A stretch of 64,000 nt of DNA, from assembly GCF_049554935.1 (NCBI RefSeq), contig NZ_CP186926.1:800001-864000 (forward strand), read 5' to 3'. Each line of letters starts with the position of its first letter. The first letter of the stretch is position 1. Under the pieces are notes generated by a model, which saw only the letters and a program-made list of their open reading frames with translations, was not told the DNA's origin and ran no database searches. Made by a program: the position numbers and the translations under genes. Positions 8,820 to 58,767 of the stretch are shown one piece after another. Source of the stretch: Methanocaldococcus indicus (GTDB lineage: Archaea; AGJL01; Methanococci; Methanococcales; Methanocaldococcaceae).

Positions 8820-10202
8820 ATGTTTATAAATAAATGGATTGAAAGAGAAGATATTGAAGTTATAAATCCATACACATTAGAAATTATAAAAAAGATTCCT
8901 GCATTGAGTAGAGAAGAGGTTAAGGAAGCTATTGATTTGGCTTATGAAAATAAAGATAAAGCAAAACTCTCTAAAACTAAAAGATACAATATACTTATGT
9001 ATATATCTAATAAAATTAAAGAGAAAAAGGAAGAATTAGCAAAAATTTTAGCAATTGATGCAGGAAAACCTATTAAACAGGCAAGGATAGAAGTAGATAG
9101 GGCTATAACAACATTTAAATTAGCTGCTTTTTATGTTAAGGAATTAAGAGGAGAGGTTATAGAGACAAATGATAAACTTATTTTAACAAGAAGAGAACCA
9201 ATAGGTTTATTAGCAGCTATAACACCATTCAACTTTCCATTAAATTTATCTGCCCATAAAATAGCTCCATCAATTGCAGTAGGTAACTTTATTTTACACC
9301 ATCCTTCTATAAAAGCTCCATTAGCTACTATTGAGTTGGCTAAGATTATTGAAGAAGCTTATAAAAAATATTCTGACTATGTGCCATACTATCTATTAAC
9401 TGGTTTAGGGGAAGTTGTTGGAGATGAGTTAGTTGTCAATGAAAAAATAAATATGATTTCTTTTACAGGGAGTACATATGTTGGAGAGGAGATAACAAAA
9501 AAAGCAGGATTTAAGAAGATACATTTAGAGTTAGGGGGTGTTAATCCAAACTTAGTTTTAAAAGATGCTGATATAAATAAAGCTGTTAAATCTCTTGTAA
9601 AAGGTTCTTTTTTATATGCTAAACAGGTATGTATTGCTGTTGGAGTAATTTTGGTGGATGAGGAGATAGCAGATACATTCATTAAAAAGTTTGTTGAAGA
9701 AACTAAAAAATTGAAAGTAGGTAATCCATTAAATGAGGAGACAGATGTTGGCCCAGTTATTACATTAGAACATGCTAAATTTGCTGAAACATTAATAAAT
9801 AGAGCTATTGAAGATGGAGCAAAACTCTTGTTAGGAGGTAGAAGGGAGAAATCTATCATTTATCCAACTATTTTAGAGGTTGATAGAGATAACTTCTTAT
9901 GTAGAACTGAAACATTTGCCCCTATTGTTCCAATAGTTAGATGTAGTGAAGAGGAGATGTTAGATATAGCAAATTCCCTTGAATATGGATTGCATTCAGC
10001 AATATTTACTCAAAATATAAATAAAGCACTTTCTTTTGCTGAAAATTTAGAGTTTGGTGGTGTTATTATAAATGACTCTTCATTATATAGAGTGGATAAT
10101 ATGCCATTTGGAGGAGTTAAAAAGAGTGGTTTAGGTAGAGAGGGAATAAAATATGCAATAGAAGAGATGAGTGAAATTAAAACTATTTGCATATCAAAAT
10201 AA
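8820..10202 (+). CDS. Aldehyde dehydrogenase, probable lactaldehyde dehydrogenase (MJ1411-like)
   Basis: ITPFNFP, SFTGS, LELGG, catalytic QVC, ETFAP, PFGGVKKSG. Confidence 0.88.
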   Translation: MFINKWIEREDIEVINPYTLEIIKKIPALSREEVKEAIDLAYENKDKAKLSKTKRYNILMYISNKIKEKKEELAKILAIDAGKPIKQARIEVDRAITTFKLAAFYVKELRGEVIETNDKLILTRREPIGLLAAITPFNFPLNLSAHKIAPSIAVGNFILHHPSIKAPLATIELAKIIEEAYKKYSDYVPYYLLTGLGEVVGDELVVNEKINMISFTGSTYVGEEITKKAGFKKIHLELGGVNPNLVLKDADINKAVKSLVKGSFLYAKQVCIAVGVILVDEEIADTFIKKFVEETKKLKVGNPLNEETDVGPVITLEHAKFAETLINRAIEDGAKLLLGGRREKSIIYPTILEVDRDNFLCRTETFAPIVPIVRCSEEEMLDIANSLEYGLHSAIFTQNINKALSFAENLEFGGVIINDSSLYRVDNMPFGGVKKSGLGREGIKYAIEEMSEIKTICISK

Positions 10203-10892
10203 AAAATATAGAATAATTCCAAAGATTCCACCTAATAAATTAGCTAAGAAGTTTGTAATTTCATTATTTACTATCTTTTTTCTTTCTAATGTAGCCCCAA
10301 TATAGCTATCAACAATATTCCCTAAGAATCCTGCTATTGTTGAAGATACTAAAAGTTTAAAATCATTAAATAATATAAAACCAACAACACCAATTAAAAA
10401 ACTGCCTAATAATCCAGCCAATAATCCCAATAGTGTAATCCCCCCATCCTCTCCTTCTTTAACTTCTTTAAAAGTAGTTATTAATCTTGGTTTTTCATTA
10501 GAAAGTATTCCTATCTCAGAGGAAAATGTGTCTGAGGTTGCTGATGCAATAGATGCTACATAACCTACTAATCCAAAATTAAAACCAATTAAATATAAAA
10601 TAGCAAAAATTAGAGGAGGTAATCCATTAGCTAAAACATTTTTTAGCCCTCTACAAACTTCTAAATTTTTTAATTTTTTCTTCTTTTCTTTTCCTAATCT
10701 ACTTGCCAATGAGCATAAAACAAAAAAAGATAACAAAATTAAGAAAAATTTAAATCCACAAAAATATATTAAGAAAAATCCCATTATAGCAGATGCTAAA
10801 ATACCTTTGTTATCTAGTGTTTTACTTCTTTTTATTATTATAGAGAGAATCAATACAATAACTATTGCCAATAAAAATCTAAGTATATCCAT
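10194..10892 (-). CDS. DUF92/TMEM19 family membrane protein
   Basis: NVLANG, SDTFSSEIG, GGITLLG, DSYIGATLE, NEITN. Confidence 0.88.
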   Translation of the reverse strand: MDILRFLLAIVIVLILSIIIKRSKTLDNKGILASAIMGFFLIYFCGFKFFLILLSFFVLCSLASRLGKEKKKKLKNLEVCRGLKNVLANGLPPLIFAILYLIGFNFGLVGYVASIASATSDTFSSEIGILSNEKPRLITTFKEVKEGEDGGITLLGLLAGLLGSFLIGVVGFILFNDFKLLVSSTIAGFLGNIVDSYIGATLERKKIVNNEITNFLANLLGGIFGIILYFLF

Positions 10893-27983: not shown

Positions 27984-28061
27984 TGGCGCCCTGGCCGGGA
28001 TTTGAACCCGAGTCACGGGAGTGACAGTCCCGTATGATAGGCCGGGCTACACCACCAGGGC
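27984..28061 (-). tRNA. tRNA-Asp(GTC)
   Basis: Cloverleaf, CGGGA-CT-GTC-AC-TCCCG, encoded CCA. Confidence 0.97.
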
Positions 28062-28089
28062 TCAAAAGCCAAGGATAAACCTTAAATAG

Positions 28090-28208
28090 TGGCCGGCGGC
28101 GTCGCCCCTTTCCCGCCAGATGGCAGTACTCGGGGCATCGCTGGGGGGCTTAACTTCCGGGTTCGGAATGGGTCCGGGTGTGGCACCCCCGCTATGGCCG
28201 CCGTGCCA
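28090..28208 (-). rRNA. rrf: 5S rRNA
   Basis: GC-rich ~119 nt with GGCCATAGC, CCCATTCCGAACCCGGAAGTTAAG and GAGTACT motifs; ends pair. Confidence 0.96.
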
Positions 28209-28214
28209 GTGAAG

Positions 28215-28288
28215 CGGGCCCGAGGGGATTTGAACCCCCGACCACCTGGTTAAAAGCCAGGCGCTCTGCCAGGCTGAGCTACGGGCCC
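28215..28288 (-). tRNA. tRNA-Lys(TTT)
   Basis: Cloverleaf, CCTGG-CT-TTT-AA-CCAGG. Confidence 0.96.
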
Positions 28289-28321
28289 AATTAAGGTGGA
28301 GTAATAATATACCTATAACTC

Positions 28322-28340
28322 ATATATATACTTTACGGTT
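28322..28340 (-). promoter_or_regulatory. Internal BRE/TATA promoter upstream of tRNA-Lys-5S-tRNA-Asp
   Basis: Reverse complement AACCGTAAAG-TATATATAT matches the methanococcal stable-RNA promoter form. Confidence 0.6.
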
Positions 28341-28346
28341 TTGAAG

Positions 28347-28423
28347 TGGTCCGGCGGGCCGGATTTGAACCAGCGACATGGGGATCTACAGTCCCCCGTT
28401 CTACCAGGCTGAACTACCGCCGG
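28347..28423 (-). tRNA. tRNA-Tyr(GTA)
   Basis: Cloverleaf, C1-G72 pair, CT-GTA-GA, encoded CCA. Confidence 0.96.
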
Positions 28424-28431
28424 ACTTAAAA

Positions 28432-28509
28432 TGGTGGGCCTGCCCAGATTTGAACTGGGGTCTCAGGATCCCAAATCCCAAAGGATAGACCAGGCTACCC
28501 CACAGGCCC
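28432..28509 (-). tRNA. tRNA-Pro(TGG)
   Basis: Cloverleaf, TT-TGG-GA loop, encoded CCA. Confidence 0.96.
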
Positions 28510-28539
28510 TCTGGCAAGGAAAACCTAATATTATATAAA

Positions 28540-28616
28540 TGGAGCCCCGGGGGGGATTTGAACCCCCGACCACCTGATTACAAGTCAGGCGCTCTACCAG
28601 GCTGAGCCACCGAGGC
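28540..28616 (-). tRNA. tRNA-Thr(TGT)
   Basis: Cloverleaf, CCTGA-CT-TGT-AA-TCAGG, encoded CCA. Confidence 0.96.
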
Positions 28617-28648
28617 TCACTTGCGTAATAATTAAAATACGAAACTCA

Positions 28649-28656
28649 TATATAAA
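28649..28656 (-). promoter_or_regulatory. TATA box of the tRNA-Thr...5S operon
   Basis: AGAAAAA-TTTATATA on the minus strand ~33 bp upstream of tRNA-Thr. Confidence 0.65.
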
Positions 28657-28705
28657 TTTTTCTATAATCAATTAATTCTTATATTTGAAATAATATTCAG
28701 TAAAG

Positions 28706-28713
28706 TTTATATA
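28706..28713 (+). promoter_or_regulatory. TATA box of initiator tRNA-Met
   Basis: CAGTAAAG-TTTATATA followed ~22 nt later by ATGC. Confidence 0.65.
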
Positions 28714-28749
28714 CCCCTTTTCTGATATATATAGAATGCTCTTTTATGA

Positions 28750-28828
28750 AGCGGGGTGGGGTAGCCAGGTCCATCCCGCCGGGCTCATAACCCGGAGATC
28801 GGAGGTTCAAATCCTCCCCCCGCTACCA
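28750..28828 (+). tRNA. Initiator tRNA-Met(CAT)
   Basis: A1-U72 pair, GGG/CCC anticodon stem, CT-CAT-AA, encoded CCA. Confidence 0.96.
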
Positions 28829-45304: not shown

Positions 45305-45381
45305 GGGCTCGTGGTCTAGCTGGCTATGATGCCGCCCTGACACGGCGGTGGTCGGGAGTTCGAATCTCCCCGAGCCCACCA
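45305..45381 (+). tRNA. tRNA-Val(GAC)
   Basis: Cloverleaf, CCGCC-CT-GAC-AC-GGCGG, encoded CCA; TTTATATA at 45247. Confidence 0.96.
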
Positions 45382-46723: not shown

Positions 46724-49372
46724 TCATTTTGTATCTTCTTTTAATACTTGTGCATTTATTTGGCTGAGAGTTTCTTTTATTTTTAACTCATAATCAGATT
46801 TTTTCAGCTTACCATTAGTAGCTTTTATTTCAATTATTATCTCTATATTTTCAAAGGTATTTTCTAAGGTTCTCATAATATACCTGTAAAAATCAGATAA
46901 CTTTCCTCTTGGAATTTTTACTTCAAGAGTTAGTTCATTTATTGTTGGTTCTATATAATTAGGAATCTCCTGAGTTTTTTTATTATCTTCAATCTTTTGT
47001 TTAATTTCTTCTTTCTTTTCTTCTGTTTTTGTTTCTATAATTTTTATATCTGTTGTTTCAAGTTTTTCTTCTTTAGGAGTTTTGTCTTGAGATTCTTTCT
47101 TTTCACATAATTCTTTTTTTATTATGATTTCATAATCTTCAAACTCTATCTTAGGTGTTGTATTTATTGTAATACATTCAATTTTTCCATTTTTTAAAAT
47201 TCCAAAGCCAAAGAAACCATTTTTTACACCATCTTCAATAGACTTTATAAAGTTATTTTTGGATATTCTTGGTTCTCCTGGTGTTGTTAAAAGGGCTTTG
47301 TAAAGTTGTTTTATTGGAAGATAATCTTTATTTGTAAGATATTTATGTAATATTAAAATTGGGGATAATTTTTCTATAATTTCCTTTTCTTCTTTTAATT
47401 TATCAAATATCTCCTCTGTTATTGTTTTTTTAACACCATAGGTAGGAATACCAAGGTCTATCTCTTTTATTCCATCTTTTCCTGGGAGGTAGATTATTCT
47501 ATAGAAATATCTAAGTTTATCTCTTTCATCTTTAATTAGTTTTTTAATTTTCTCTTCAACATCTTTTTTCTGCTGTTCAGTTAGAACTATGTATTTATCT
47601 TTTTTAATACTCTCCCATGCTAACTTCTCTCTTAAAAATTTTTCAAAGTTGTGTCTTTCAGATTCCAGAGGACATAAGAAAATAAGAGTATTTTTATAAA
47701 CTCTTGGATTATCTCCGTAATTTTGAATTATTTCATTAATAAATTCTTTATCATTTGTTGGTAGAACTATAAGTTTTAATTCCTCAGAGTCTGGAATATC
47801 TTTTGATGTTCTTGGATATATGTAGGTTTTGAGCTTTTTACCAAGGTATTTTTTTAGGAGAGTTTTAATTTCTTCCTCTATAACTTCATTTTCAATCTCA
47901 GCCATTTTTGTAATTATAGTTCTGTTCAGATTTGGCTGATTTTTAAAGAAATATCTTTTTTCATCTTTCCATAAGTAATAAAGATTATCTTCAAGATTAC
48001 TAACTACTTCTGAGATAACTGTTGATGGTATAGTAGGGTCTGAGCATGTTAGTTTTAGCTCCCCAAGAGTTATACCTTTAATTTCTCCTCCTGAAAATGA
48101 GTAGAGAAAGATGGTAGTTGCTACTTTAGTTCCAAGCTTTAAGCCCTTATATGTGTCTCCAAGGAGTTTATCTACTTTCTTAGCATTTGAGTTATTTGCT
48201 GTTATATCTGCTGATAAGACACTTTCATATTCTTTTCCAATGTGCTTAATTAGTTCCTCTGCCAACTCTCCAAAGCTTAGGTCAAAGTCACAAGGTCTTA
48301 TTAATGGAATTGATGAATCTTTTAATTTATATGTAACAAGGGAGAGAATTCTTAAAACACCTCTTGTTCTTTGGAATGTTGGAATACTACCCCATCTATA
48401 ATGTAATACATCAACAACTTCAGGATGGAATGGATAGCTTTTTATCATTTTTTCTCTATATTGAGATTTATTGTTTATTAAAATACCTTCTCTTTCATAG
48501 TAGTCAATAAATTCATCTACAATATTTTTTACTTCTTCCTCATCAATTCTTTGGAATAATCTTTTTCTTATAATTTCATAAATTTCCTCTCCAACTACAG
48601 GAGTGTAAATTTTTTCAACTCTTCCAATAACCTGTTGTAGTCTTGTTAATAACTCCTCTGCTACTTCTTCATCTGCATATTCAATAATACTTGCTGGCAA
48701 TGTTATAACAAGAAGAGTGTTATTTAAAGATTTGACAGTTTCAGATAATTCTTGAAGAAATGCAATTGTTTGAGATGCTAAGTTTGATTCTCCTACTTTA
48801 ACACCTCTTGCTTTTACTACATACTCTAAAACTTCATCCATTAAAATTAAAACTGGTTCATGCTTCTCTAACAGTGCCCTTAACTTCTCCCTACCTGGAG
48901 AAATTGGAGAGCTAAGAGTTTTTATCTCTCCTTCAAGCTGTTTCTCAATCTCTCCCCATAAGGTTCCTATTATCTTACCATCTTTTTCTTCTGGGGTTAT
49001 TGCTGTCCCAACAATTGTAACAACCTTTGCCTTTATTGGTTCTATTCCTTCTACATATTTTTTAGCAATTTCTGGATTTTTAAATGTGTGATAAAGAGTG
49101 ATTAATGAATGTGTCTTCCCTCCACCAAATGGAGTTTGTATTTGGATTATTGAGTCTCCTCCCTCTCCTTTTAATCTTTTTGAAGCAATTTTTATTAAAG
49201 ATTTTAATCCTGAAGTTAAGTAAGTTTTTTTAAAGAATAGTTCTGGGTCTTTGTAGTCATCAGGTGCTCTATTTTTATAAACTTCCCATAAATCTGCAGC
49301 AAATACATCCATTGTTAATCTTCCTTCTAATATATCCCTATGAGGTACTGCAACTAAGTGAAATGGTTTCAT
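46724..49372 (-). CDS. DUF499 family AAA+ ATPase (BrxC/PglY-related)
   Basis: PH.DI..G..FAADL, FFKKTYLT, TPFGGGKTH Walker A, LILMDE Walker B, SYPFHP, FQRTRGVLR. Confidence 0.9.
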   Translation of the reverse strand: MKPFHLVAVPHRDILEGRLTMDVFAADLWEVYKNRAPDDYKDPELFFKKTYLTSGLKSLIKIASKRLKGEGGDSIIQIQTPFGGGKTHSLITLYHTFKNPEIAKKYVEGIEPIKAKVVTIVGTAITPEEKDGKIIGTLWGEIEKQLEGEIKTLSSPISPGREKLRALLEKHEPVLILMDEVLEYVVKARGVKVGESNLASQTIAFLQELSETVKSLNNTLLVITLPASIIEYADEEVAEELLTRLQQVIGRVEKIYTPVVGEEIYEIIRKRLFQRIDEEEVKNIVDEFIDYYEREGILINNKSQYREKMIKSYPFHPEVVDVLHYRWGSIPTFQRTRGVLRILSLVTYKLKDSSIPLIRPCDFDLSFGELAEELIKHIGKEYESVLSADITANNSNAKKVDKLLGDTYKGLKLGTKVATTIFLYSFSGGEIKGITLGELKLTCSDPTIPSTVISEVVSNLEDNLYYLWKDEKRYFFKNQPNLNRTIITKMAEIENEVIEEEIKTLLKKYLGKKLKTYIYPRTSKDIPDSEELKLIVLPTNDKEFINEIIQNYGDNPRVYKNTLIFLCPLESERHNFEKFLREKLAWESIKKDKYIVLTEQQKKDVEEKIKKLIKDERDKLRYFYRIIYLPGKDGIKEIDLGIPTYGVKKTITEEIFDKLKEEKEIIEKLSPILILHKYLTNKDYLPIKQLYKALLTTPGEPRISKNNFIKSIEDGVKNGFFGFGILKNGKIECITINTTPKIEFEDYEIIIKKELCEKKESQDKTPKEEKLETTDIKIIETKTEEKKEEIKQKIEDNKKTQEIPNYIEPTINELTLEVKIPRGKLSDFYRYIMRTLENTFENIEIIIEIKATNGKLKKSDYELKIKETLSQINAQVLKEDTK

Positions 49373-49401
49373 AATTTTTCCCCCTTCCTATATTTTTAAA
49401 T

Positions 49402-50418
49402 TTATCTCAAAACCTCTTTAATAGCATGCCACTCAATTATTGAGGTAGGTTTGATTATACCATTAACAACATCATAAAACAAAATTTCATTTTCCACTAA
49501 AAATTTAAATTCTTTAATTAACTCTCTTTTAATAATTTCATAGTCCTCAACTTTAATTTTATCTCTAAATTTATTTAAAATTTCATATATTTTATTTTCA
49601 TCTAATTCATCTGGCATATTTGCAATTAAAAACATTAATCCATCTTTCTCAATATTAATCCACTGCTTTATTGTTTCTTTAACAGATAAGCCAAGTTTTT
49701 TGTTATTTATCAGCTGAGAGATTTCATAAGGTAAAGAGAGATAATTTGAGGCATAATTTAGTTCATCCTCACTAAAACCCTCTTCTTTTAAAATCTTCTT
49801 TATTGTTTCTTTCTCTAACCAATCAATTAAATAATATTCTGAGGCATTTTTTAATGTTGAATTTCTATAAATTTCCTCAATAAATAATGTATCTGATGTT
49901 AAACAAATAACGTGGCATAGATGCTCCATTTTAGTTAGAGAAACAAAGAGGTTAAATAATTCATTCAATAATGATTTATTTCCATTAAAGTAGATATTTT
50001 TTAGTTTTTGAAGTTCATCTATAATTAAGACAGGTTTTTTTCCTTCTTGAATAACAGCATTTATTGATTCATTTATCTTAGCAAAAACATCATTCAAAGA
50101 CAAATTGTTAAAATCAAAATTTTCCTCAACTCCAAATTTAAACACTCCTAAATTAATCTCTAATTTATTTAGAAGATATTTTTTATCTGACTTTTCAAAA
50201 AATACTCTTAAAAATTCATCTTTTGTAGGAGTGGCATATTTCCTTAGGTTATAATAGAAAAACACTATATTACTGTTTTCCAATTCTTTAATAACTCTTC
50301 TCATTACTGTTGATTTTCCAGATGACTTTGGACCATAAATAAATAATATAGAGTTTGGTTCTAACTGCACATAAGTCTTTAAATATTTAAGTTCTTTCTC
50401 TCTATTATGGAATTTCAT
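49402..50418 (-). CDS. Archaeal ATPase (ATPase_2 family, Methanocaldococcus-expanded), paralog 2
   Basis: MKFHNREKEL, YGPKSSGKST, LIIDELQ, HVICLTSD. Confidence 0.9.
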   Translation of the reverse strand: MKFHNREKELKYLKTYVQLEPNSILFIYGPKSSGKSTVMRRVIKELENSNIVFFYYNLRKYATPTKDEFLRVFFEKSDKKYLLNKLEINLGVFKFGVEENFDFNNLSLNDVFAKINESINAVIQEGKKPVLIIDELQKLKNIYFNGNKSLLNELFNLFVSLTKMEHLCHVICLTSDTLFIEEIYRNSTLKNASEYYLIDWLEKETIKKILKEEGFSEDELNYASNYLSLPYEISQLINNKKLGLSVKETIKQWINIEKDGLMFLIANMPDELDENKIYEILNKFRDKIKVEDYEIIKRELIKEFKFLVENEILFYDVVNGIIKPTSIIEWHAIKEVLR

Positions 50419-50432
50419 TTTATACACCAAAT

Positions 50433-51440
50433 TTATTTTAAAACCTCTTTAATAGCCCACCACTCTATTATTGATGTAGGCTTGATTATTCCATTTATAA
50501 CATCATAAAATAAAATCTCATTCTCTATTAGGAATTTAACGTCATCAAAAATTTCATCTTCAAAATTATCAATACTTACTTTTATCTTATTGTTAAATTT
50601 ACTTAATATTTTTAATAAATTCTCTTTTCTATCTTTATTTGACTTTAATAAATACATCAATCCATCTTTCTCAATATTTATCCACTGCTTTATTGTTTCT
50701 TCTACCGACAAGCCAAGTTTTTTATTATTTATTAATTGGGTGATTTCATAAGGTAAAGAGAGATAGTTTGAAGCATAATTAACTTCTTCCTCACTAAAAC
50801 CCTCTTCTTTTAATATCTTCTTTATTGTTTCTTTTTCTAACCAATCAATTAAATAATATTCAGAAGCATTTTTTAATGTTGAGTTTCTATATATTTCCTC
50901 AATAAATAATGTGTCAGAGGTTAAACAAATAACATGGCATAGATGTCTAACTTTTGTTAAATGGACAAAGAGATTGAATAATTCATTTAATAATGATTTA
51001 CCACCATTAAAGTAGATATTTTTTAGTTTTTGCAACTCATCTATTATTAGAATTGGTTTCTTTCCATCTTTGATAACTGCCTCAATTCCTTCATAAATTT
51101 TATTAAATATGTTATTTAATTTTATATTGTTGAAATCAAATTTTTTCTCAACACCAAACTTAAAAATTTTTAGATTAATTTCTAATTTATTTAGAAGATA
51201 TTTTTTATCTGACTCTTCAAAAAATATTTCTAAAAACTCTTCTATTGTTGGTGTGGCATATCTTCTTAAATCATAATAAAAAAATACTATATTGCTATTT
51301 TCTAACTCTTTAATAACTCTAAGCATAACAGTTGTTTTTCCAGAAGATTTAGGGCCATAAACAAATAAAATAGCGTTTGGTTCTAACTGCACATATGTTT
51401 TTAAGTAGTTGAGTTCTTTCTCTCTATTGTAAAATTTCAT
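50433..51440 (-). CDS. Archaeal ATPase (ATPase_2 family), paralog 1
   Basis: MKFYNREKEL, YGPKSSGKTT, LIIDELQ; long stretches identical to the neighbouring paralog. Confidence 0.9.
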   Translation of the reverse strand: MKFYNREKELNYLKTYVQLEPNAILFVYGPKSSGKTTVMLRVIKELENSNIVFFYYDLRRYATPTIEEFLEIFFEESDKKYLLNKLEINLKIFKFGVEKKFDFNNIKLNNIFNKIYEGIEAVIKDGKKPILIIDELQKLKNIYFNGGKSLLNELFNLFVHLTKVRHLCHVICLTSDTLFIEEIYRNSTLKNASEYYLIDWLEKETIKKILKEEGFSEEEVNYASNYLSLPYEITQLINNKKLGLSVEETIKQWINIEKDGLMYLLKSNKDRKENLLKILSKFNNKIKVSIDNFEDEIFDDVKFLIENEILFYDVINGIIKPTSIIEWWAIKEVLK

Positions 51441-51492
51441 TTTATACACCATACTCCATAGGAAAATAAAGGTTATGCTCCAATTAATTAAG

Positions 51493-52041
51493 CTAATTTT
51501 TCTTCATTTTTTCATCAGTTTTAATTTGAATTTTCATATACTTCTGATTTATCAAAGTTATTTTGGATTTTAGCTTATTTATGATTATCATATTAATACT
51601 TATATCAAATATGATTGCACTTATCAAATCTGCAAGCAAGTAAAAAGTTAGGGCTATGTTTAGTATAAATGAAATTTTAAAATAAAACAAATATGTATTG
51701 TAGGCAGTAATGAAGTTATTATTCACAATGTCAAACTTTTGGTTAAGAAGATTAATTTGGTTTTGAGTAATATTGCAATATTGTTTTATTTCTTCAATGT
51801 CTGCTTTTGTTATATTCTCCCTTCTTAATTTTTCATATTTTTGCTTATATTCTTGCAATTGTTGTTGTAATTGTGATATTTGTTGTTTTAATGCACTTAT
51901 TTCAGCATCCTTTTGCTCAATCTGTTGAATATACGGCTGAGATTTAGTAGATATTAATATTTGACTTAAAGACGATAAAAGAATTATAATAATTGGTAGA
52001 ATAATGATGGCAACAATTAATAATTCTATCATTTTCTCCAT
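51493..52041 (-). CDS. Hypothetical membrane protein: TM - Gln-rich coiled coil - TM
   Basis: AGGTG SD; hydrophobic N-terminus, heptad ISALKQQISQLQQQLQEYKQKYEKL, second hydrophobic segment. Confidence 0.75.
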   Translation of the reverse strand: MEKMIELLIVAIIILPIIIILLSSLSQILISTKSQPYIQQIEQKDAEISALKQQISQLQQQLQEYKQKYEKLRRENITKADIEEIKQYCNITQNQINLLNQKFDIVNNNFITAYNTYLFYFKISFILNIALTFYLLADLISAIIFDISINMIIINKLKSKITLINQKYMKIQIKTDEKMKKN

Positions 52042-52064
52042 TAACAACACCTATTTTTAAAGAT

Positions 52065-54788
52065 TTAAAAGAACTCATCCAATCTTCTTTGCTCTTTTGC
52101 TGATTTTATAATGTTTTCTCTTCCAACTAAGAATCCATCAAGTAGTTTTTTCTCTTTGCTATCTTTTGGCAGAGTTTCAGATATTGCCTGAGCAAATTTG
52201 AAAAAGCTATCTTTTAAGTAGTTTGTCTCTTGGAGAGTTTTTATTATTCCTTCTTTATCTCCCTTCTCCCAGAGTTTTAAAACTTTATGGAGAACATCAA
52301 CTAAATCCTTTGGCTCTTTCAACTCTTCCAACTTTCTTTCATGAGGTCCTAAGAGGTAGATATATTCCTTATCTTTCTTTATAAATCCCTTGTTCCATTC
52401 TTTCTCTAAGTTTAAGCCCACACTTTGAGCTAATTTCCTTGCCTCATCAAAGATGACTTTTGATGTTCCATAACTCCATCTGTAAAGGAGGTAGAATCTT
52501 GATAATGGAGATAGTTCATCTGCAAAACCATTGTGGATAATTTGTTTAACTGCATAGTCAGTTACAATCTCTCTAACATATTCAAGGAGTTTATCTCCCC
52601 TTATCTCATTTCCTTCATAGTCCATGATTTTGTTGTATTTTCCAAATACTTCAATTGCAGAACCAATTGCAGAGATGAAGAAATCAGCCCCTCCAATTCC
52701 TTCCTTCCAGAGTTTGTCAAGTTTTTTGTGTAAGTGTTTTTTAATTTCTTCCTTAACTTCATTTAGCCAACCAATTTCTTCTTTTTGCATCTTTCTTGCT
52801 ACAATGTAAATTGATGATGCCAATGCAGCTGATTCTTTTGCTCTTAATCTTGATTTCATTTCTGTGTGTATTGGATAACTTGCAGTTATAACTAATCCAG
52901 ATTCTAAGAGAGCATTTATAACTGTTTCCCATCCTTCTGTTGTTTTATGTGCATAGACAATAACTGCTATTCCATTTGGCTTTAAAACTCTATATATTTC
53001 TTTAAATGCCTTTTTTAGATTTTCTTCAAAGAATTTTTTGCCATCTTCAACTGTCCAACCTTCATGTTTATAAGCAACAATTTCTTGAGATTTTGGAGTT
53101 AGTGGGGTTGAGAACAGATCTGGATATAAATCTCCAATGGTCCTTTTTAACCAAACATAGAAAAAGTCAGAGAGATAAGAGTAAGGAACATTATCATAGT
53201 ATGGTGGGTCTGTAAAGACAGCATCAAAGAAATTATCTGGATATGGAAGAGATGTTGCTGATGCTTGGGATACTTTTGGTATGAAATTATTTTCTGTTGG
53301 TGGAATTTGAGAAAAATGTTTTAGTGCTTTAATTACCCAATCTAAATTTGATTCCCATCCAAATGATTCACATATTGGAATGGACTCAAAATAATCCCAT
53401 ACCATACCTAATGCCTGTCTCTGCATAGCAGGACTTGCTTTTTCTCCAGTTACATGCCAATACCCCAAATTAGAACAATAAATCATTATTCTATCCAATC
53501 CTAAAGCCAAATATGTAACAACTGCCTTAGCATAATCCTCTTTATCTTCAATATCCTTCCTATCTTTCAAGTCATCTAAAATTTTATAATAAGCTTCTTT
53601 AATCTTATCCATAAATGTAATTAATGCCAATTTTTGCCTTGAATTGAACAAATCTCCCCATGTTTTTATATGATAATTTTCTCGTGGAGCAAATGGTCTT
53701 TGTGTAATCGTATGAACAATAGGAATTTCCTCATTAGGCACAGGGTCAAATCCCCACTTATCAATAAACTCCTCCCTTTTCTTCTCCGAATACTTCTCTG
53801 CATCTTTGAAAATCTCTAAATCTTTTTCAGTTGCTACTCTGTATTTTTTACCTTTCTCTTTTGGATTGTGTAAAACCACTGCTATTAATCTCTCCCTATT
53901 CTTTCCTTCTTTAAACAAATTCCTCAAAGTCTTTGCATCAATAACAGAACCACAAACTGGGCATGTAACTATTGCTCTCCTAACAGTCCCTTTTGATGGG
54001 TCAAAATTTTTAGGCATCTTCTCATATCCATCTCCAACAATCTTAAATTTAACTTCCCCATCTTTAACATAAGGATACAATGCAACTTTTTTATTCTTTT
54101 TCTTAGCTAACCAAAACTGCCTCATTAGTGGAATCTCTGCATTACAAGATGGGTTTTGGCATGGAACTGTTCTTGCCCAAATATATCCAACTGGAATATC
54201 TCCATTTTCTTCAACTGGATAAAATTTCCCAATCTCTTTCTTTGCTTCCTCTAAAACCCAATTACCCCACTTTTTAACATCTTCAAGTAGTGGGTTGTAA
54301 ATTTCCTCAGCTCCTAAGGAATTTTTTCTCTTCATTCTTCCATATTTTTGTGGAAATTCTAAAACTGCCTTTAATATCAAAACAGCTACTGGATTATAGT
54401 CATTTGCATAAACCTCACATCCCAACCTCAAAGCCTCTAAAGGTATTGCCCCTCCCCCTGAAAATGGGTCTAAAACTCTTGGCACATATCCCAAAGATTT
54501 TTTAATATCTTCTCTTGCTTTTTTTATAATTTTAGAGTTTGTTGAATTCTCCCACTTAGCCAATTTTTTTATAAATTCTTTTATTTCATCCTCTTTCTCC
54601 TCTGAATATTCAATTAAAGATGCATAACTTGTAGTCCTTGAAGATGCTAATGGTCTTCTTGCCCACCATATATGTAAAGTTGAGATATGTCCATGTCTAA
54701 TGTTTTTTTCTCTTGCTGATTCCTCACTAACTTCCTTAACTGGAAACACTTCCTCAATAAATGCCCTCTTTATTGGAAATTCTTTCAT
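52065..54788 (-). CDS. DUF1156-containing amino (probably N6-adenine) DNA methyltransferase with Zn ribbon
   Basis: HIWWARRPLA, SAM motif VLDPFSGGG, CQNPSC/CPVC, catalytic TDPPYY. Confidence 0.92.
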   Translation of the reverse strand: MKEFPIKRAFIEEVFPVKEVSEESAREKNIRHGHISTLHIWWARRPLASSRTTSYASLIEYSEEKEDEIKEFIKKLAKWENSTNSKIIKKAREDIKKSLGYVPRVLDPFSGGGAIPLEALRLGCEVYANDYNPVAVLILKAVLEFPQKYGRMKRKNSLGAEEIYNPLLEDVKKWGNWVLEEAKKEIGKFYPVEENGDIPVGYIWARTVPCQNPSCNAEIPLMRQFWLAKKKNKKVALYPYVKDGEVKFKIVGDGYEKMPKNFDPSKGTVRRAIVTCPVCGSVIDAKTLRNLFKEGKNRERLIAVVLHNPKEKGKKYRVATEKDLEIFKDAEKYSEKKREEFIDKWGFDPVPNEEIPIVHTITQRPFAPRENYHIKTWGDLFNSRQKLALITFMDKIKEAYYKILDDLKDRKDIEDKEDYAKAVVTYLALGLDRIMIYCSNLGYWHVTGEKASPAMQRQALGMVWDYFESIPICESFGWESNLDWVIKALKHFSQIPPTENNFIPKVSQASATSLPYPDNFFDAVFTDPPYYDNVPYSYLSDFFYVWLKRTIGDLYPDLFSTPLTPKSQEIVAYKHEGWTVEDGKKFFEENLKKAFKEIYRVLKPNGIAVIVYAHKTTEGWETVINALLESGLVITASYPIHTEMKSRLRAKESAALASSIYIVARKMQKEEIGWLNEVKEEIKKHLHKKLDKLWKEGIGGADFFISAIGSAIEVFGKYNKIMDYEGNEIRGDKLLEYVREIVTDYAVKQIIHNGFADELSPLSRFYLLYRWSYGTSKVIFDEARKLAQSVGLNLEKEWNKGFIKKDKEYIYLLGPHERKLEELKEPKDLVDVLHKVLKLWEKGDKEGIIKTLQETNYLKDSFFKFAQAISETLPKDSKEKKLLDGFLVGRENIIKSAKEQRRLDEFF

Positions 54789-57700
54789 TAAATATCACCA
54801 TTATTTAATTTAACTTTTTTAGGAGTTTCTTTAAATTTCCATTCATTGGTTGGAATTATAAACCTAACTACTTCAACTTTTTCAATAGCTTTTAAATTCT
54901 CAGCAGGGTTTTTTATAGTATAGAGTGTTGGATTTTCCACAGCATTCTCCACAATGTATAGCCAATATTTATCCTTAAACCTCTTAGCCATAAACCATTC
55001 ATTTGGAGTTAAAGCAACTTCTCCAGTTGTAGCTCTTGCCTTAACTTCAATATATCTCACTTCTCCATTACCTTCTGAATAGATATCATATCCCAAATTC
55101 TTTGAAGAAACATCAATAGGATTTCTCCCATTCATTTTTTCATATGCCATAGCTACTTCCATTCCAATTCTCTCAACTTCTTCATCACTAACCATCTTTC
55201 TCTCTGATATAACTCTTATAGCTCCAACAAACTCTGGCATGCTAATAGTTAAATTTTTCTGTCTCTCAATTTCTTCTTTTAATTTTTCTAAAGCTTCTTC
55301 ATACTCTTTCTTCTTCCTTTCAGCCATTGTAATTGGTAAATCCATCTTCTTTCCTTCACTCTCCTGCTTCTCATAATATTCCAATATTTTTGAATCCAAT
55401 TCAGATATCAAATTCTCCAAGGATTTAATTCCATACTTCTTTTTAATATTTGCCTGTCTCTCCCTCTCTTTAAGAATATCATTTTTATATTTCATTAATG
55501 ATGATATTGCACATTTTCTTGCTTTCTCTTTCCTTTCCTCTATATTCTCAATCTCAATGCCTTTAATATCTGTTGGCACTAAGTCCCAGATTATTGCTGG
55601 ATTTATCTCCTCAAAATTACTTCCATCATCATATATAGCAAATAATCTTTTTCCAGCAATTTCTCCAGTTCCATCTTTAACTTCTCCTTCAAAAAACCAT
55701 ATAATTCCATCATATTTTCCAGAAACATCTTTAAATACTGCTCCTACTTTACATTTATCTAAATAATTCCTTAAAACCCATTCTAAAACTGCCTCAAATA
55801 AAGGATGCCCAAAGGAAACATATTCTACATCTGAATTTTTCATAGCAATTTCTTTATCAAAAGTAATTTTTGCATATCTCTTTGCCAACTCTCCCCAAGT
55901 GTTTTTAAACTTCTCTTCATTTGCTATCTTTCTAATCTCATAAGGAATTGAATCAACCCTATAATAATCTTTAACTTTAACAATTTTTCCTCCAGCTTTT
56001 TTAAATGCTTTGATAAAGAATGCCTCAGTATATTCTGGAGCTAATCTATACCTCTTACTTTTTTCAGAAATTTCTTTTATTCTTGTATAGTCAATTTCTC
56101 TAATTGCTAAGCTGTCTCCCAATGCCTCTTTAACTCTCCTTAAATATTCTTCATCAACATCAATCTCAATCTCCTTCAATATCTCCTCAACATCTCTTGC
56201 ATTTGCAGCTGCTTCAAGGACAAGTTGATAGAGTTTTTTTCCATAAAATATCTCTCCAATGACATCAAAGACCTTATCTCCCAAATGTTTTCTAATCTCC
56301 TCTAATTTATTAAGCAATCTTAATAAAACCTTTCCCTCTCTTGTATTGTCTGCAACCAAATTGTAAATAAAAACCTCTCTTGTCTGTCCATATCTATGAA
56401 TTCTACCCATTCTCTGCTCTAACCTGTTTGGATTCCAAGGAATGTCATAGTTTATCATAATATTACAAAACTGTAAATTAATTCCTTCCCCAGCAGCTTC
56501 AGTAGCTACCATAATTTGAGCTTCATTTCTAAACTCCTGCTCAGCCCTGATTCTATCTTCAAGTTTCATTCCTCCATGTATATATGTTACAGAATGCCCC
56601 CATGATTTTATTTTTTCCACTAAATACTCCAAAGTATCTCTTGATTCTGTAAAAATTAGAATTTTATGGTCTTTTGGGTATTTTTCCAATAATTCTTTTA
56701 ATTCTCTAAGCTTTGTCTCTTTCTCAGATGCTATAATCTCATCAGCCATTTTTATTAACTTATTTATATATTTAATTTCTTTCTTTAATTCATCAATATT
56801 CTCAGAAACAGTTAAAGTTTCCCATATCTCTTCAATTTTCCATCTTTCTGTCTCATCATAATCATCAATATCCTCAATATCTTTAAATAATAATTTATTA
56901 TCTGTCAAATCCTTAATTTTCTCTAATCTTTTCTTCCTTCTCTCCAATGAGCATCTTAATGCATAGACACTTGAAGCAAATCTCCTCTGCAAGATTAATA
57001 AAGCAAAAGCCACATTTTTTTTTTTATCATTTTTTAATGCCTTGTTATATTGCTCAATCACATACTTAGATAATGCATTATACAGCCTCATCTCTTCATC
57101 TGAGCATGAAAATTTTATAGTTTTAACATGTCTTGGCAAAAACAATGGTTTTCCATCAAAATCAACTAAATCCTCCTTTAATCTTCTTATAAATAATGGA
57201 TTATCCTTATTTTTAATAGATTCTTCAATCATATCAGCAGATGAGAAAAATCCTGGATATAATAAATCTAAAAATAATCTAAAGTTTTCAGCATCTCCTC
57301 TGTGTGGTGTTGCAGTTAAAAATAGTAAATGCTCAGAAGTTCTTGATAAAACTTCTCCTAATCTGTATCTATCTGTTTTTTTAGTTTTATCTCCATATTT
57401 GTAGGCAGACATTTTATGAGCTTCATCAACAACAACTAAATCCCAATGGACACTCCCCAAAGATGCTAATATATCCTCCTGCTTAGCAAAATCCATAGAT
57501 GTTATTACTTGGTTATATTTTTCCCAAACATTTACCCCATAGTTGTTATTTATAAGGTTTCTATCAACAACTACAAAATTCTCTGAAAACTTTTCTTTTA
57601 ACTCTCTTCTCCACTGGTCTTTTAAATGCCCTGGAACTACAATTAATATTCTTTTTGCTAATCCTCTAAGCTTTAACTCCTTAATAACCAATCCAGCCAT

Positions 57701-58099
57701 TATTGTTTTCCCAGCTCCTGGGTCATCTGCTATCAAAAACCTAATCCTTGGAAGCTTTAAGATATAGTTATAGACAACATCAATTTGATGAGGTAGTGGG
57801 TCTATTTTTGAGACTGTTGTAGCTAAGAATGGGTCAAAGAGATACGCTAACCTAAATCTATATCCTTCCAATCCAAGAAAAACCTCTTCAGCATTCTCTG
57901 AAAAATTTAGTTTCTCAATATCATGGGTTTTAATTTTATCTAAATCATCTTTTGGAATTATGTTGTCAATGTATTTTTTAGATTTTGTCATAACCCCAAC
58001 AATTCTTATAGAATCTCCAAAATCTTCTATTTCCAATATTCTTACAGGTTCTGGCCAGTGTGGGGATTTTATAACACTTCCTTGCTTTAATTCAATCAT
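54788..58099 (-). CDS. SNF2/RapA-like helicase with C-terminal DUF3883-type PD-(D/E)XK nuclease (start ATG 58099 or 58111)
   Basis: PLPHQ, ADDPGAGKT, DEAH, LTATPH, GEGINLQ, EQRMGRIHRYGQ; C-terminal GYDIYS...YIEVK...LTPNE. Confidence 0.92.
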   Translation of the reverse strand: MIELKQGSVIKSPHWPEPVRILEIEDFGDSIRIVGVMTKSKKYIDNIIPKDDLDKIKTHDIEKLNFSENAEEVFLGLEGYRFRLAYLFDPFLATTVSKIDPLPHQIDVVYNYILKLPRIRFLIADDPGAGKTIMAGLVIKELKLRGLAKRILIVVPGHLKDQWRRELKEKFSENFVVVDRNLINNNYGVNVWEKYNQVITSMDFAKQEDILASLGSVHWDLVVVDEAHKMSAYKYGDKTKKTDRYRLGEVLSRTSEHLLFLTATPHRGDAENFRLFLDLLYPGFFSSADMIEESIKNKDNPLFIRRLKEDLVDFDGKPLFLPRHVKTIKFSCSDEEMRLYNALSKYVIEQYNKALKNDKKKNVAFALLILQRRFASSVYALRCSLERRKKRLEKIKDLTDNKLLFKDIEDIDDYDETERWKIEEIWETLTVSENIDELKKEIKYINKLIKMADEIIASEKETKLRELKELLEKYPKDHKILIFTESRDTLEYLVEKIKSWGHSVTYIHGGMKLEDRIRAEQEFRNEAQIMVATEAAGEGINLQFCNIMINYDIPWNPNRLEQRMGRIHRYGQTREVFIYNLVADNTREGKVLLRLLNKLEEIRKHLGDKVFDVIGEIFYGKKLYQLVLEAAANARDVEEILKEIEIDVDEEYLRRVKEALGDSLAIREIDYTRIKEISEKSKRYRLAPEYTEAFFIKAFKKAGGKIVKVKDYYRVDSIPYEIRKIANEEKFKNTWGELAKRYAKITFDKEIAMKNSDVEYVSFGHPLFEAVLEWVLRNYLDKCKVGAVFKDVSGKYDGIIWFFEGEVKDGTGEIAGKRLFAIYDDGSNFEEINPAIIWDLVPTDIKGIEIENIEERKEKARKCAISSLMKYKNDILKERERQANIKKKYGIKSLENLISELDSKILEYYEKQESEGKKMDLPITMAERKKKEYEEALEKLKEEIERQKNLTISMPEFVGAIRVISERKMVSDEEVERIGMEVAMAYEKMNGRNPIDVSSKNLGYDIYSEGNGEVRYIEVKARATTGEVALTPNEWFMAKRFKDKYWLYIVENAVENPTLYTIKNPAENLKAIEKVEVVRFIIPTNEWKFKETPKKVKLNNGDI

Positions 58100-58321
58100 A
58101 AAAATCCACACTCTAAATTTGTTAATTAATAATATTTAATTTAGTTTCAATATTGTTATATAGAAAAGTTCTTATTGTGTAATTTCTAATTTTTAATATC
58201 TAAAATTTAGGTTTATGATATACACTTAAAGAGCTACTCATTAATAGTTTAAATACTTTAACTTTTAAATTTAAAAAATGGATAAACTATTAAAATTACC
58301 TAATCACATAAACTATAATTT

Positions 58322-58767
58322 ATGAAGAGAATTATAATCTCAATAATATTATCTATTTGTATGTATTATTATATCAATACAGTTTTTACCTGATATACAA
58401 AGTAAGTTGATTAGTGTTGTAATTTTTTTAGTTTTAATGTGGAGTTTAGAAGCTTTACCTATAGGAGTCACATCTTTACTGCCCATTATACTGTTTCCAC
58501 TATTAGGAATCCTACCAATCAATGATGTAACTTCAAACTATTCTAAACCCTATTATATACAAATTAGGAAGTTATAATTTACTTTTAGTTGCCACTATTT
58601 GTGGTAGTTATGCATTTATGTTGCCAATAGCTACTCCTCCAAATGCTATTGCTATGTCTGGAATTTTAAAAACAAAAGATATGATTAAATATGGAATCAT
58701 TTTAAATATTTTAGCAATAATTTTAACAACAATTATAGCAACATACTACTGGAAAATATTCATTTAA
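58322..58767 (+). pseudogene. Remnant of a DASS/SLC13 sodium:dicarboxylate or sulfate symporter (frameshifted, large internal deletion)
   Basis: N-terminal WSLEALPIGVTSLLPIILFPLLGI lies close to C-terminal SYAFMLPIATPPNAI...KDMIKYG; in-frame stop after MKRIII...VFT; only ~450 bp in total. Confidence 0.88.

Follow-up and report, generated by a model that had tools for sequence, protein, structure and literature searches.

We analysed a 64,000-nucleotide stretch of the Methanocaldococcus indicus genome (NZ_CP186926.1, positions 800,001 to 864,000; hereafter the window, to which all coordinates refer), in which six open reading frames (ORFs), all on the minus strand, occupy 46724-58111. In operon order they encode HmaA, an SNF2 helicase with a C-terminal NOV_C/DUF3883 nuclease of the PD-(D/E)xK type (54788..58111, an ORF of 1107 amino acids [aa]), HmaB, a DUF1156 adenine DNA methyltransferase (52065..54788, 907 aa), an unnamed protein predicted to cross the membrane twice, its two segments being separated by a coiled coil (51493..52050, 185-aa ORF), two small archaeal ATPases of one family (50433..51452, 339 aa, and 49402..50430, 342 aa) and HmaC, a DUF499 AAA+ ATPase (46724..49372, 882 aa). 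The initial annotation of this DNA had described six co-oriented and tightly packed genes with a 1-nt overlap between helicase and methylase, and the ORF list bears this out: from HmaA to HmaC the intergenic gaps are -1, 14, 40, 2 and 29 nt, and a TAATG shares one base between the HmaA stop and the HmaB start. The HmaA start likely lies at 58099, a few codons inside the longest ORF, and that of the membrane protein is likely also internal (182 aa versus the 185-aa ORF). The three inserted genes (24-25% GC) are more AT-rich than the core genes (29-34%) and the genome (1.44 Mb, 28% GC).

The outer three genes gave full-length or nearly full-length matches in PADLOC, their best profiles being HmaA (E 6.2e-212, residues 7-1069), HmaB (E 3.1e-134, nearly full length) and HmaC (E 9.9e-142, profile positions 3-928 aligned from residue 1). 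Pfam assigned SNF2-rel_dom, Helicase_C and NOV_C (E 2.7e-23) to HmaA, DUF1156 (E 2.5e-20, at residues 14-64) to HmaB and DUF499 (E 4.2e-51) to HmaC. The catalytic motifs that had been called intact are all present: GAGKT (132), DEAH (229) and QRMGRIHR (566) in the HmaA helicase; D1009...E1022-V-K1024...E1038 in its nuclease, residues that correspond by motif and not by alignment to D1084/E1104/K1106/E1121 of the Halomonas protein; DPFSGGG (107) and DPPY (527) in HmaB; and GGGKT (83), LMDEV (177) and YPFHP (313) in HmaC. HmaB further contains a zinc-finger-type insert with two CxxC-type pairs at 210 and 276 (CQNPSC, CPVC), and the C-terminal 70 residues of HmaC, judged by eye from the sequence, appear to alternate between strand and helix, an RRM-like end being one of the features that define Hma. 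No solved structure related by sequence to HmaB or to HmaC was found. Because the PADLOC matches to HmaA, HmaB and HmaC are nearly full length and lie in the A-B-C order, there is very little doubt that these genes constitute a complete, intact Hma system, that is, a Type-1 BREX-related (BR; BREX, bacteriophage exclusion) system.

The locus had been put forward as a novel system, a claim that did not hold against the literature. Hma (helicase-nuclease, methylase, ATPase) was named in PMC8565338, with 1,638 instances in 26 phyla, was partly tested in PMC11232893 and was catalogued in PMC12839542 as the Type-1 DUF499-centred BR system of 2,446 taxa, 203 archaea among them. The present locus resembles these systems in its three proteins (SNF2 helicase with C-terminal NOV_C nuclease, DUF1156 methylase, DUF499 ATPase) and their order, in lacking PglZ and in holding cargo genes within the operon, as do about 66.5% of hma loci (PMC11232893). 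It differs in its archaeal host, the tested system being that of Halomonas, in the absence of an N-terminal HEPN extension from HmaC, present in 1,370 of the 2,446 taxa (PMC12839542), and in its cargo, a nuclease-less ATPase pair and an unnamed membrane protein as opposed to Septu, AAA_21 or GmrSD-like genes. We thus rejected a new six-gene system on the basis that the core is published Hma and the inserts are likely passengers; what the locus adds is an intact hyperthermophilic archaeal example.

Two other assignments were considered and rejected. Type-2 BR (DUF499, DUF3780, DUF1156 and PLD-helicase; NF042962-NF042964), which Gao et al. 2020 reportedly described as "restriction-like", shares the DUF499, DUF1156 and SNF2 helicase core, but the NCBIfam scores (224/1200, 194/1000 and 154/1100) are far under the cut-offs and neither DUF3780 nor a PLD domain is among the Pfam matches of the six proteins. 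Type-3 BR and BREX were set aside since PglZ and BrxB matches are absent from the six proteins (Pfam and PADLOC; the rest of the genome was not searched for PglZ), in agreement with the earlier description of a BREX-related defence triad without PglZ. Both small ATPases keep Walker A and B, unlike the inactive STAND (BrxB-like) gene of Type-3 BR and BREX. Six genomes of the order (L025-L029, L085) contain a second DUF499 system, which starts with a methylase and continues with a DUF499 protein of about 1,100 aa, a 150-aa gene that Pfam does not match, helicase-NOV_C and, in genome G013, an additional EVE gene.

To place the locus among its relatives, neighbourhoods were compared in the Methanococcales (40 genomes, 5 genera) and in a Thermococcus-centred search of the phylum (133 genomes); G000 denotes the genome studied here, and G001, G005 and so forth the related genomes. 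The locus is not universal: close HmaC (at least 48%) occurs in 7 of the 40 Methanococcales genomes, this one counted, with a longer, distant DUF499 in six further genomes, and in 10 of the 133, where DUF499 matches at E<=1e-30 mark 18 loci in 16 genomes. Compared with G001, the core genes are 84-90% identical with a ratio of nonsynonymous to synonymous substitution (dN/dS) of 0.08-0.17, indicative of purifying selection (HmaA: 90%, about 0.08). The neighbouring nitroreductase is only 70% identical to its G001 counterpart, and this difference suggests that the Hma locus has been exchanged between species.

The membrane protein (two predicted segments) and the two P-loop ATPases do lie between the methylase and DUF499, as first annotated; their proposed role as components of a variant system is another matter, and the evidence favours passengers. 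First, three close relatives (G028, G031 and G035) have HmaB directly followed by HmaC with no insert. Second, the cargo changes: G001 has the order HmaB-membrane-ATPase-HmaC seen here plus four genes between HmaA and HmaB, its locus also containing a 454-aa ATPase-DUF234 relative of the small ATPases, and one G005 locus carries MNT-HEPN, OLD and AAA_21/DUF3226. Similarly, the Thermococcus-centred DUF499 loci have varied genes in the slot before HmaC, and in none of the 18 was a small ATPase or membrane gene found within 1.5 kb upstream of DUF499. In four Hma loci of the Thermococcus group (L137, L139, L142, L143) a different gene of 350-361 aa with a hydrophobic N-terminus stands immediately before HmaC. 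Because of these bare triads and other cargo, and because the small ATPases lie mostly elsewhere and do not form one clade (see below), we consider it quite probable that the three inserted genes are passengers that the core does not need.

A second G005 locus has been reduced to a broken ATPase and HmaC remnants, possibly through deletion between two ATPase copies. Such a remnant would suit a mobile cassette that is selfish or in decay and contributes nothing to the defence of its host, and defence is here assigned by likeness and not from activity. We nevertheless regard a selfish cassette as very improbable in view of the six open frames, the intact catalytic motifs, the low dN/dS of the core and a homologue with measured anti-phage activity (PMC11232893). 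In public sequencing data, the joints HmaC|ATPase and ATPase|ATPase are spanned by contigs of near-identical sequence from two runs of one study. The membrane gene is thinly covered by contigs in runs X2 and X3, both of one study, while its neighbours are covered, and in both runs a loose contig end falls at 52064, the HmaB stop; for both reasons the data hint that the membrane-gene slot varies among strains, the hole in cover being in itself no proof.

The two small ATPases are 79% identical to each other and each consists of a full ATPase_2 domain (PF01637) with an MJ1010-like tail and no nuclease by Pfam (for 50433-51452, ATPase_2 E 6.5e-55 and PF21690 E 4.4e-8), unlike the G001 454-aa relative with its DUF234 nuclease domain. 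We take them to be MJ-type STAND ATPases expanded in Methanocaldococcus. Their PADLOC matches to PDC-S01 are N-terminal only (E 3e-6 to 4e-3) and not whole-length. A third copy (G000:C1:1242863) lies among other genes, is 86% identical to the ATPase at 49402-50430 and groups with this HmaC-adjacent gene (support 99/93). Relatives are found in all 17 genomes of the genus (1-15 per genome, E<=1e-30). We inspected 40 regions, 39 around the best-scoring of about 156 ATPase matches and one around a DUF499 gene; together with earlier loci these yielded at least 49 full-length copies above 60% identity at about 27 sites by our grouping, in which neighbours were named by their N-terminal sequence and two or three sites may coincide. 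Only 6 of the 49 are on the DUF499 side, the other 43 being away from it, and a single clade of these six was rejected (p-AU 2.4e-6, approximately unbiased test), which led us to discard a DUF499-specific subfamily. By eye, the flanks of the copies share nothing except a ribosome-binding site. On these grounds we think it likely that the small ATPases derive from a gene without a nuclease domain that roves through these genomes and is tolerated in the slot. The subfamily occurs as a bare ORF across Methanocaldococcus-like genomes (window 49402-51452; loci L046-L085), and GC-rich hairpin-like repeats adjoin several copies (L026, L066, L080, L018).

The membrane protein had no convincing match in Pfam, PADLOC or NCBIfam beyond weak coiled-coil matches, and a Pfam scan of its family returned coiled-coil families alone, in at most 5 of 72 members. 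Successive searches yielded 12 and then 34 relatives, and clustering at 50% identity gave 91 clusters at E<=0.001 and 50 at E<=1e-10, nearly all of whose members are stand-alone proteins of 150-205 aa. All 43 members of at least 145 aa have two hydrophobic segments flanking a loop of ~98 residues; they also share a basic C-tail (mean +5), and each has one or more N-x-S/T sequons. Sequons number 113 versus 59 expected from shuffles, a comparison that is no formal test because the sequences are related. These features predict that the loop, the one soluble part of appreciable size, lies on the outer side. A monomer model (predicted TM score, pTM, 0.34) consists of three helices and is interrupted around residues 75-78, at the conserved ENITKxD motif, and a hairpin would fit this break. 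Fold searches gave no match in the PDB at E<=0.001, and the best rows in the ESM Atlas (feature score 0.79) are generic helical-hairpin structures. In topology alone the protein resembles tetherin/BST-2, with two anchors around a long helical region predicted outside the cell (PMC4160573). It differs in that its second anchor is a predicted transmembrane helix and not a glycosylphosphatidylinositol anchor (PMC4160573), that the modelled helix is interrupted at ENITKxD and that there is no sequence or fold match. None of the papers listed in a literature search on archaeal tetherin described these proteins. We consider an archaeal tetherin analogue very improbable.

The membrane gene is rare (2 of the 40 Methanococcales genomes; 4/133, 9/401, 1/301 and 8/401 in other genome searches, the two sets of 401 overlapping), and no member was found on plasmids or confirmed among 498 candidate stretches of viral contigs. 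We read 25 distinct loci, L094 duplicating L088 and L089 and L112 being one gene. In twenty-one of them the gene lies within or immediately beside an operon for Hma (two loci) or restriction-modification (RM), the latter comprising 15 of Type I, two Type IIG-like, one of Type III and one with a fused HsdR_N-methylase and a specificity gene, where some RM names come from BLAST to scanned neighbours and L119/L120 and L087/L088 are close kin. In the remainder, the gene lies two genes from a C5 methylase (L132), about 4.7 kb from an N6/N4 methylase (L133) or on short contigs (1.1-1.6 kb) in which no RM gene was recognised (L095, L096). The last three loci, found after the hypothesis had been formed, comprised one adjacent case, one two genes off and one at 4.7 kb. 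Its position varies (hsdS/hsdR gap, hsdM/hsdS gap, after hsdR, after res), and some of these RM loci also hold PIN, HEPN, MNT, Mrr-TPR and PDC-S18 passengers. Lodging as a single gene between hsd genes recalls RM-locus cargo such as PrrC in EcoprrI, from which the membrane protein differs in having no enzymatic domain, a predicted all-helical structure and two membrane segments. Its rarity in the order and its presence elsewhere in Type I, IIG, IIB-like and III RM loci at several positions speak for a passenger, and because its position changes among unrelated RM types and its loop is predicted to face outward, we favour a separate envelope-level gene over an anchor for the complex. Tentatively, the family may represent unnamed, archaeal, single-gene envelope-level defence proteins that ride in Type I, II, IIG, III and Hma loci; as part of this possibility, a glycosylated outer coiled coil between the anchors could conceivably block viral entry or release. 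Among the papers listed in literature searches on membrane cargo in RM loci and on the small-ATPase family, none described these proteins, with the proviso that the supplements of PMC12839542 and PMC11232893 may list the locus or its cargo.

We favour, as fairly probable, an RM-like Hma defence carrying independent passengers. By analogy, the locus likely protects its host against viruses or plasmids, because it is patchily present, under purifying selection and homologous to a Halomonas system with anti-phage activity, and methylation-based self/non-self discrimination, as proposed for Type-1 BR in PMC12839542, seems somewhat better than an even bet as its mode of action. HmaB, to judge from its DPPY, would mark the host by adenine methylation within a motif, HmaC could be an ATP-driven scaffold that scans DNA, as its likeness to BrxC suggests (PMC12839542), and HmaA would use its C-terminal nuclease to nick foreign DNA that is unmarked or undergoing replication, nicking and anti-T4 activity being known for the Halomonas protein only; the membrane protein would be a separate envelope-level defence gene travelling inside restriction loci. 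The helicase-fused nuclease had already been named as effector, consistent with the NOV_C match, the nuclease residues and the nicking of supercoiled DNA by Halomonas HmaA (PMC11232893).

Several findings weigh against this reading. Of the 10 DUF499 loci in genera g1 and g5, eight have an ATPase immediately in front of DUF499 (two fragments and one broken gene included; none of four loci in genus g3 does), and these cases span two DUF499 lineages only 27-29% identical, a persistence that exceeds what a random passenger would show and is unaccounted for, unless it reflects, as it may, just two inherited events. ATPase copies at one site scatter over several tree clades, so that gene conversion is likely and weakens the conclusions drawn from the tree. 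Moreover, G000 and G001, the two Hma loci with a membrane gene, hold it at the identical place; the gene here clusters with copies from Type I RM loci (SH-aLRT 97) and shares about 31% identity with that of G001, and independent acquisition is not shown by these data, as a joint origin was unrejected (p-AU 0.21) and the G001 branch is long. The recurrent place of the ATPase before DUF499 would suit one integrated six-gene variant in which a small ATPase takes the place of BrxB (STAND-like) before BrxC and the membrane protein anchors the complex where foreign DNA enters, as would the gene order shared with G001, the public-run contigs that bridge the ATPase joints and the very strong link of the membrane family to RM loci. 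The DUF499-side ATPases form no clade and most close copies lie elsewhere, however, bare triads exist in three relatives, the membrane protein accompanies RM systems of unrelated types and does so at varying positions, and its predicted outward soluble part would leave little to bind a cytoplasmic enzyme; we therefore judge an integrated variant improbable.

The activity data for Hma are themselves bacterial, function in this archaeon being assigned by likeness, and they contain a further difficulty for RM-like defence. In PMC11232893, Halomonas meridiana HmaA by itself stops T4 in a manner that requires helicase motif VI and the nuclease residues, protects E. coli without HmaB and without toxicity, and T4 propagated on an HmaB-expressing host is unchanged in behaviour, so that the single published test of self/non-self discrimination came out negative; also, only 85.3% of hmaA genes have hmaB in their vicinity, and 80.7% have hmaC. 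HmaA could thus be a stand-alone sensor-nuclease for viral replication intermediates that slows the cell, with HmaB and HmaC as regulators or acting on other invaders and no methylation test involved. Against this stand the one-base overlap of hmaA with hmaB, the intact methylase motifs under purifying selection and the use of one phage in a foreign host for the HmaB test. Such a test may also lose sensitivity with T4, whose DNA carries heavy modification. We consider HmaA acting alone a minority possibility, and RM-like Hma defence with passengers remains the reading that we prefer.

The surroundings of the operon were in part described correctly at the outset as housekeeping DNA: a nitroreductase and a small-domain methyltransferase lie downstream, but upstream on the other strand there is a broken sodium:sulfate symporter (58347-58767, +) and not an intact housekeeping gene, as well as a CooC/MinD-like ATPase gene. 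Two fragments in different frames correspond to the start and end of the symporter, the middle being missing. We saw no integrase gene among the ORFs at 40-64 kb of the window and found no repeat pair bracketing the locus, and a sigma-70 promoter scan, a model unsuited to archaea, was at chance level (60 vs 66.9). The site after nitroreductase-TatD holds Type-1 Hma in G001 (L018), the broken ATPase-HmaC in G005 (L024) and a different DUF499 system in G013 (L026), whereas in M. indicus Hma lies on the opposite side of the nitroreductase. A tRNA-Val gene (45305-45381) lies 1.3 kb from HmaC, and a cluster of six tRNA genes occupies a stretch of 47% GC at 27984-28828. On the second contig of the genome (G000:C2, 22 kb), an SNF2 helicase with 26% identity to HmaA lies at the end, a gene that is EVE-like by N-terminal likeness at the start and a small-ATPase remnant near 10158-10249.

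With no solved structure found that is akin to HmaB or HmaC, the heat-stable proteins of this locus could serve structural and biochemical work, also on what the methylase does. The membrane protein, a single gene product without an enzymatic domain, is a candidate anti-virus defence of archaea, and its presence in Hma loci means that the family is not bound to one type of restriction enzyme. If our tentative reading of this family is true, its members would constitute an envelope-level defence that is carried in all kinds of methylation-based defence locus.

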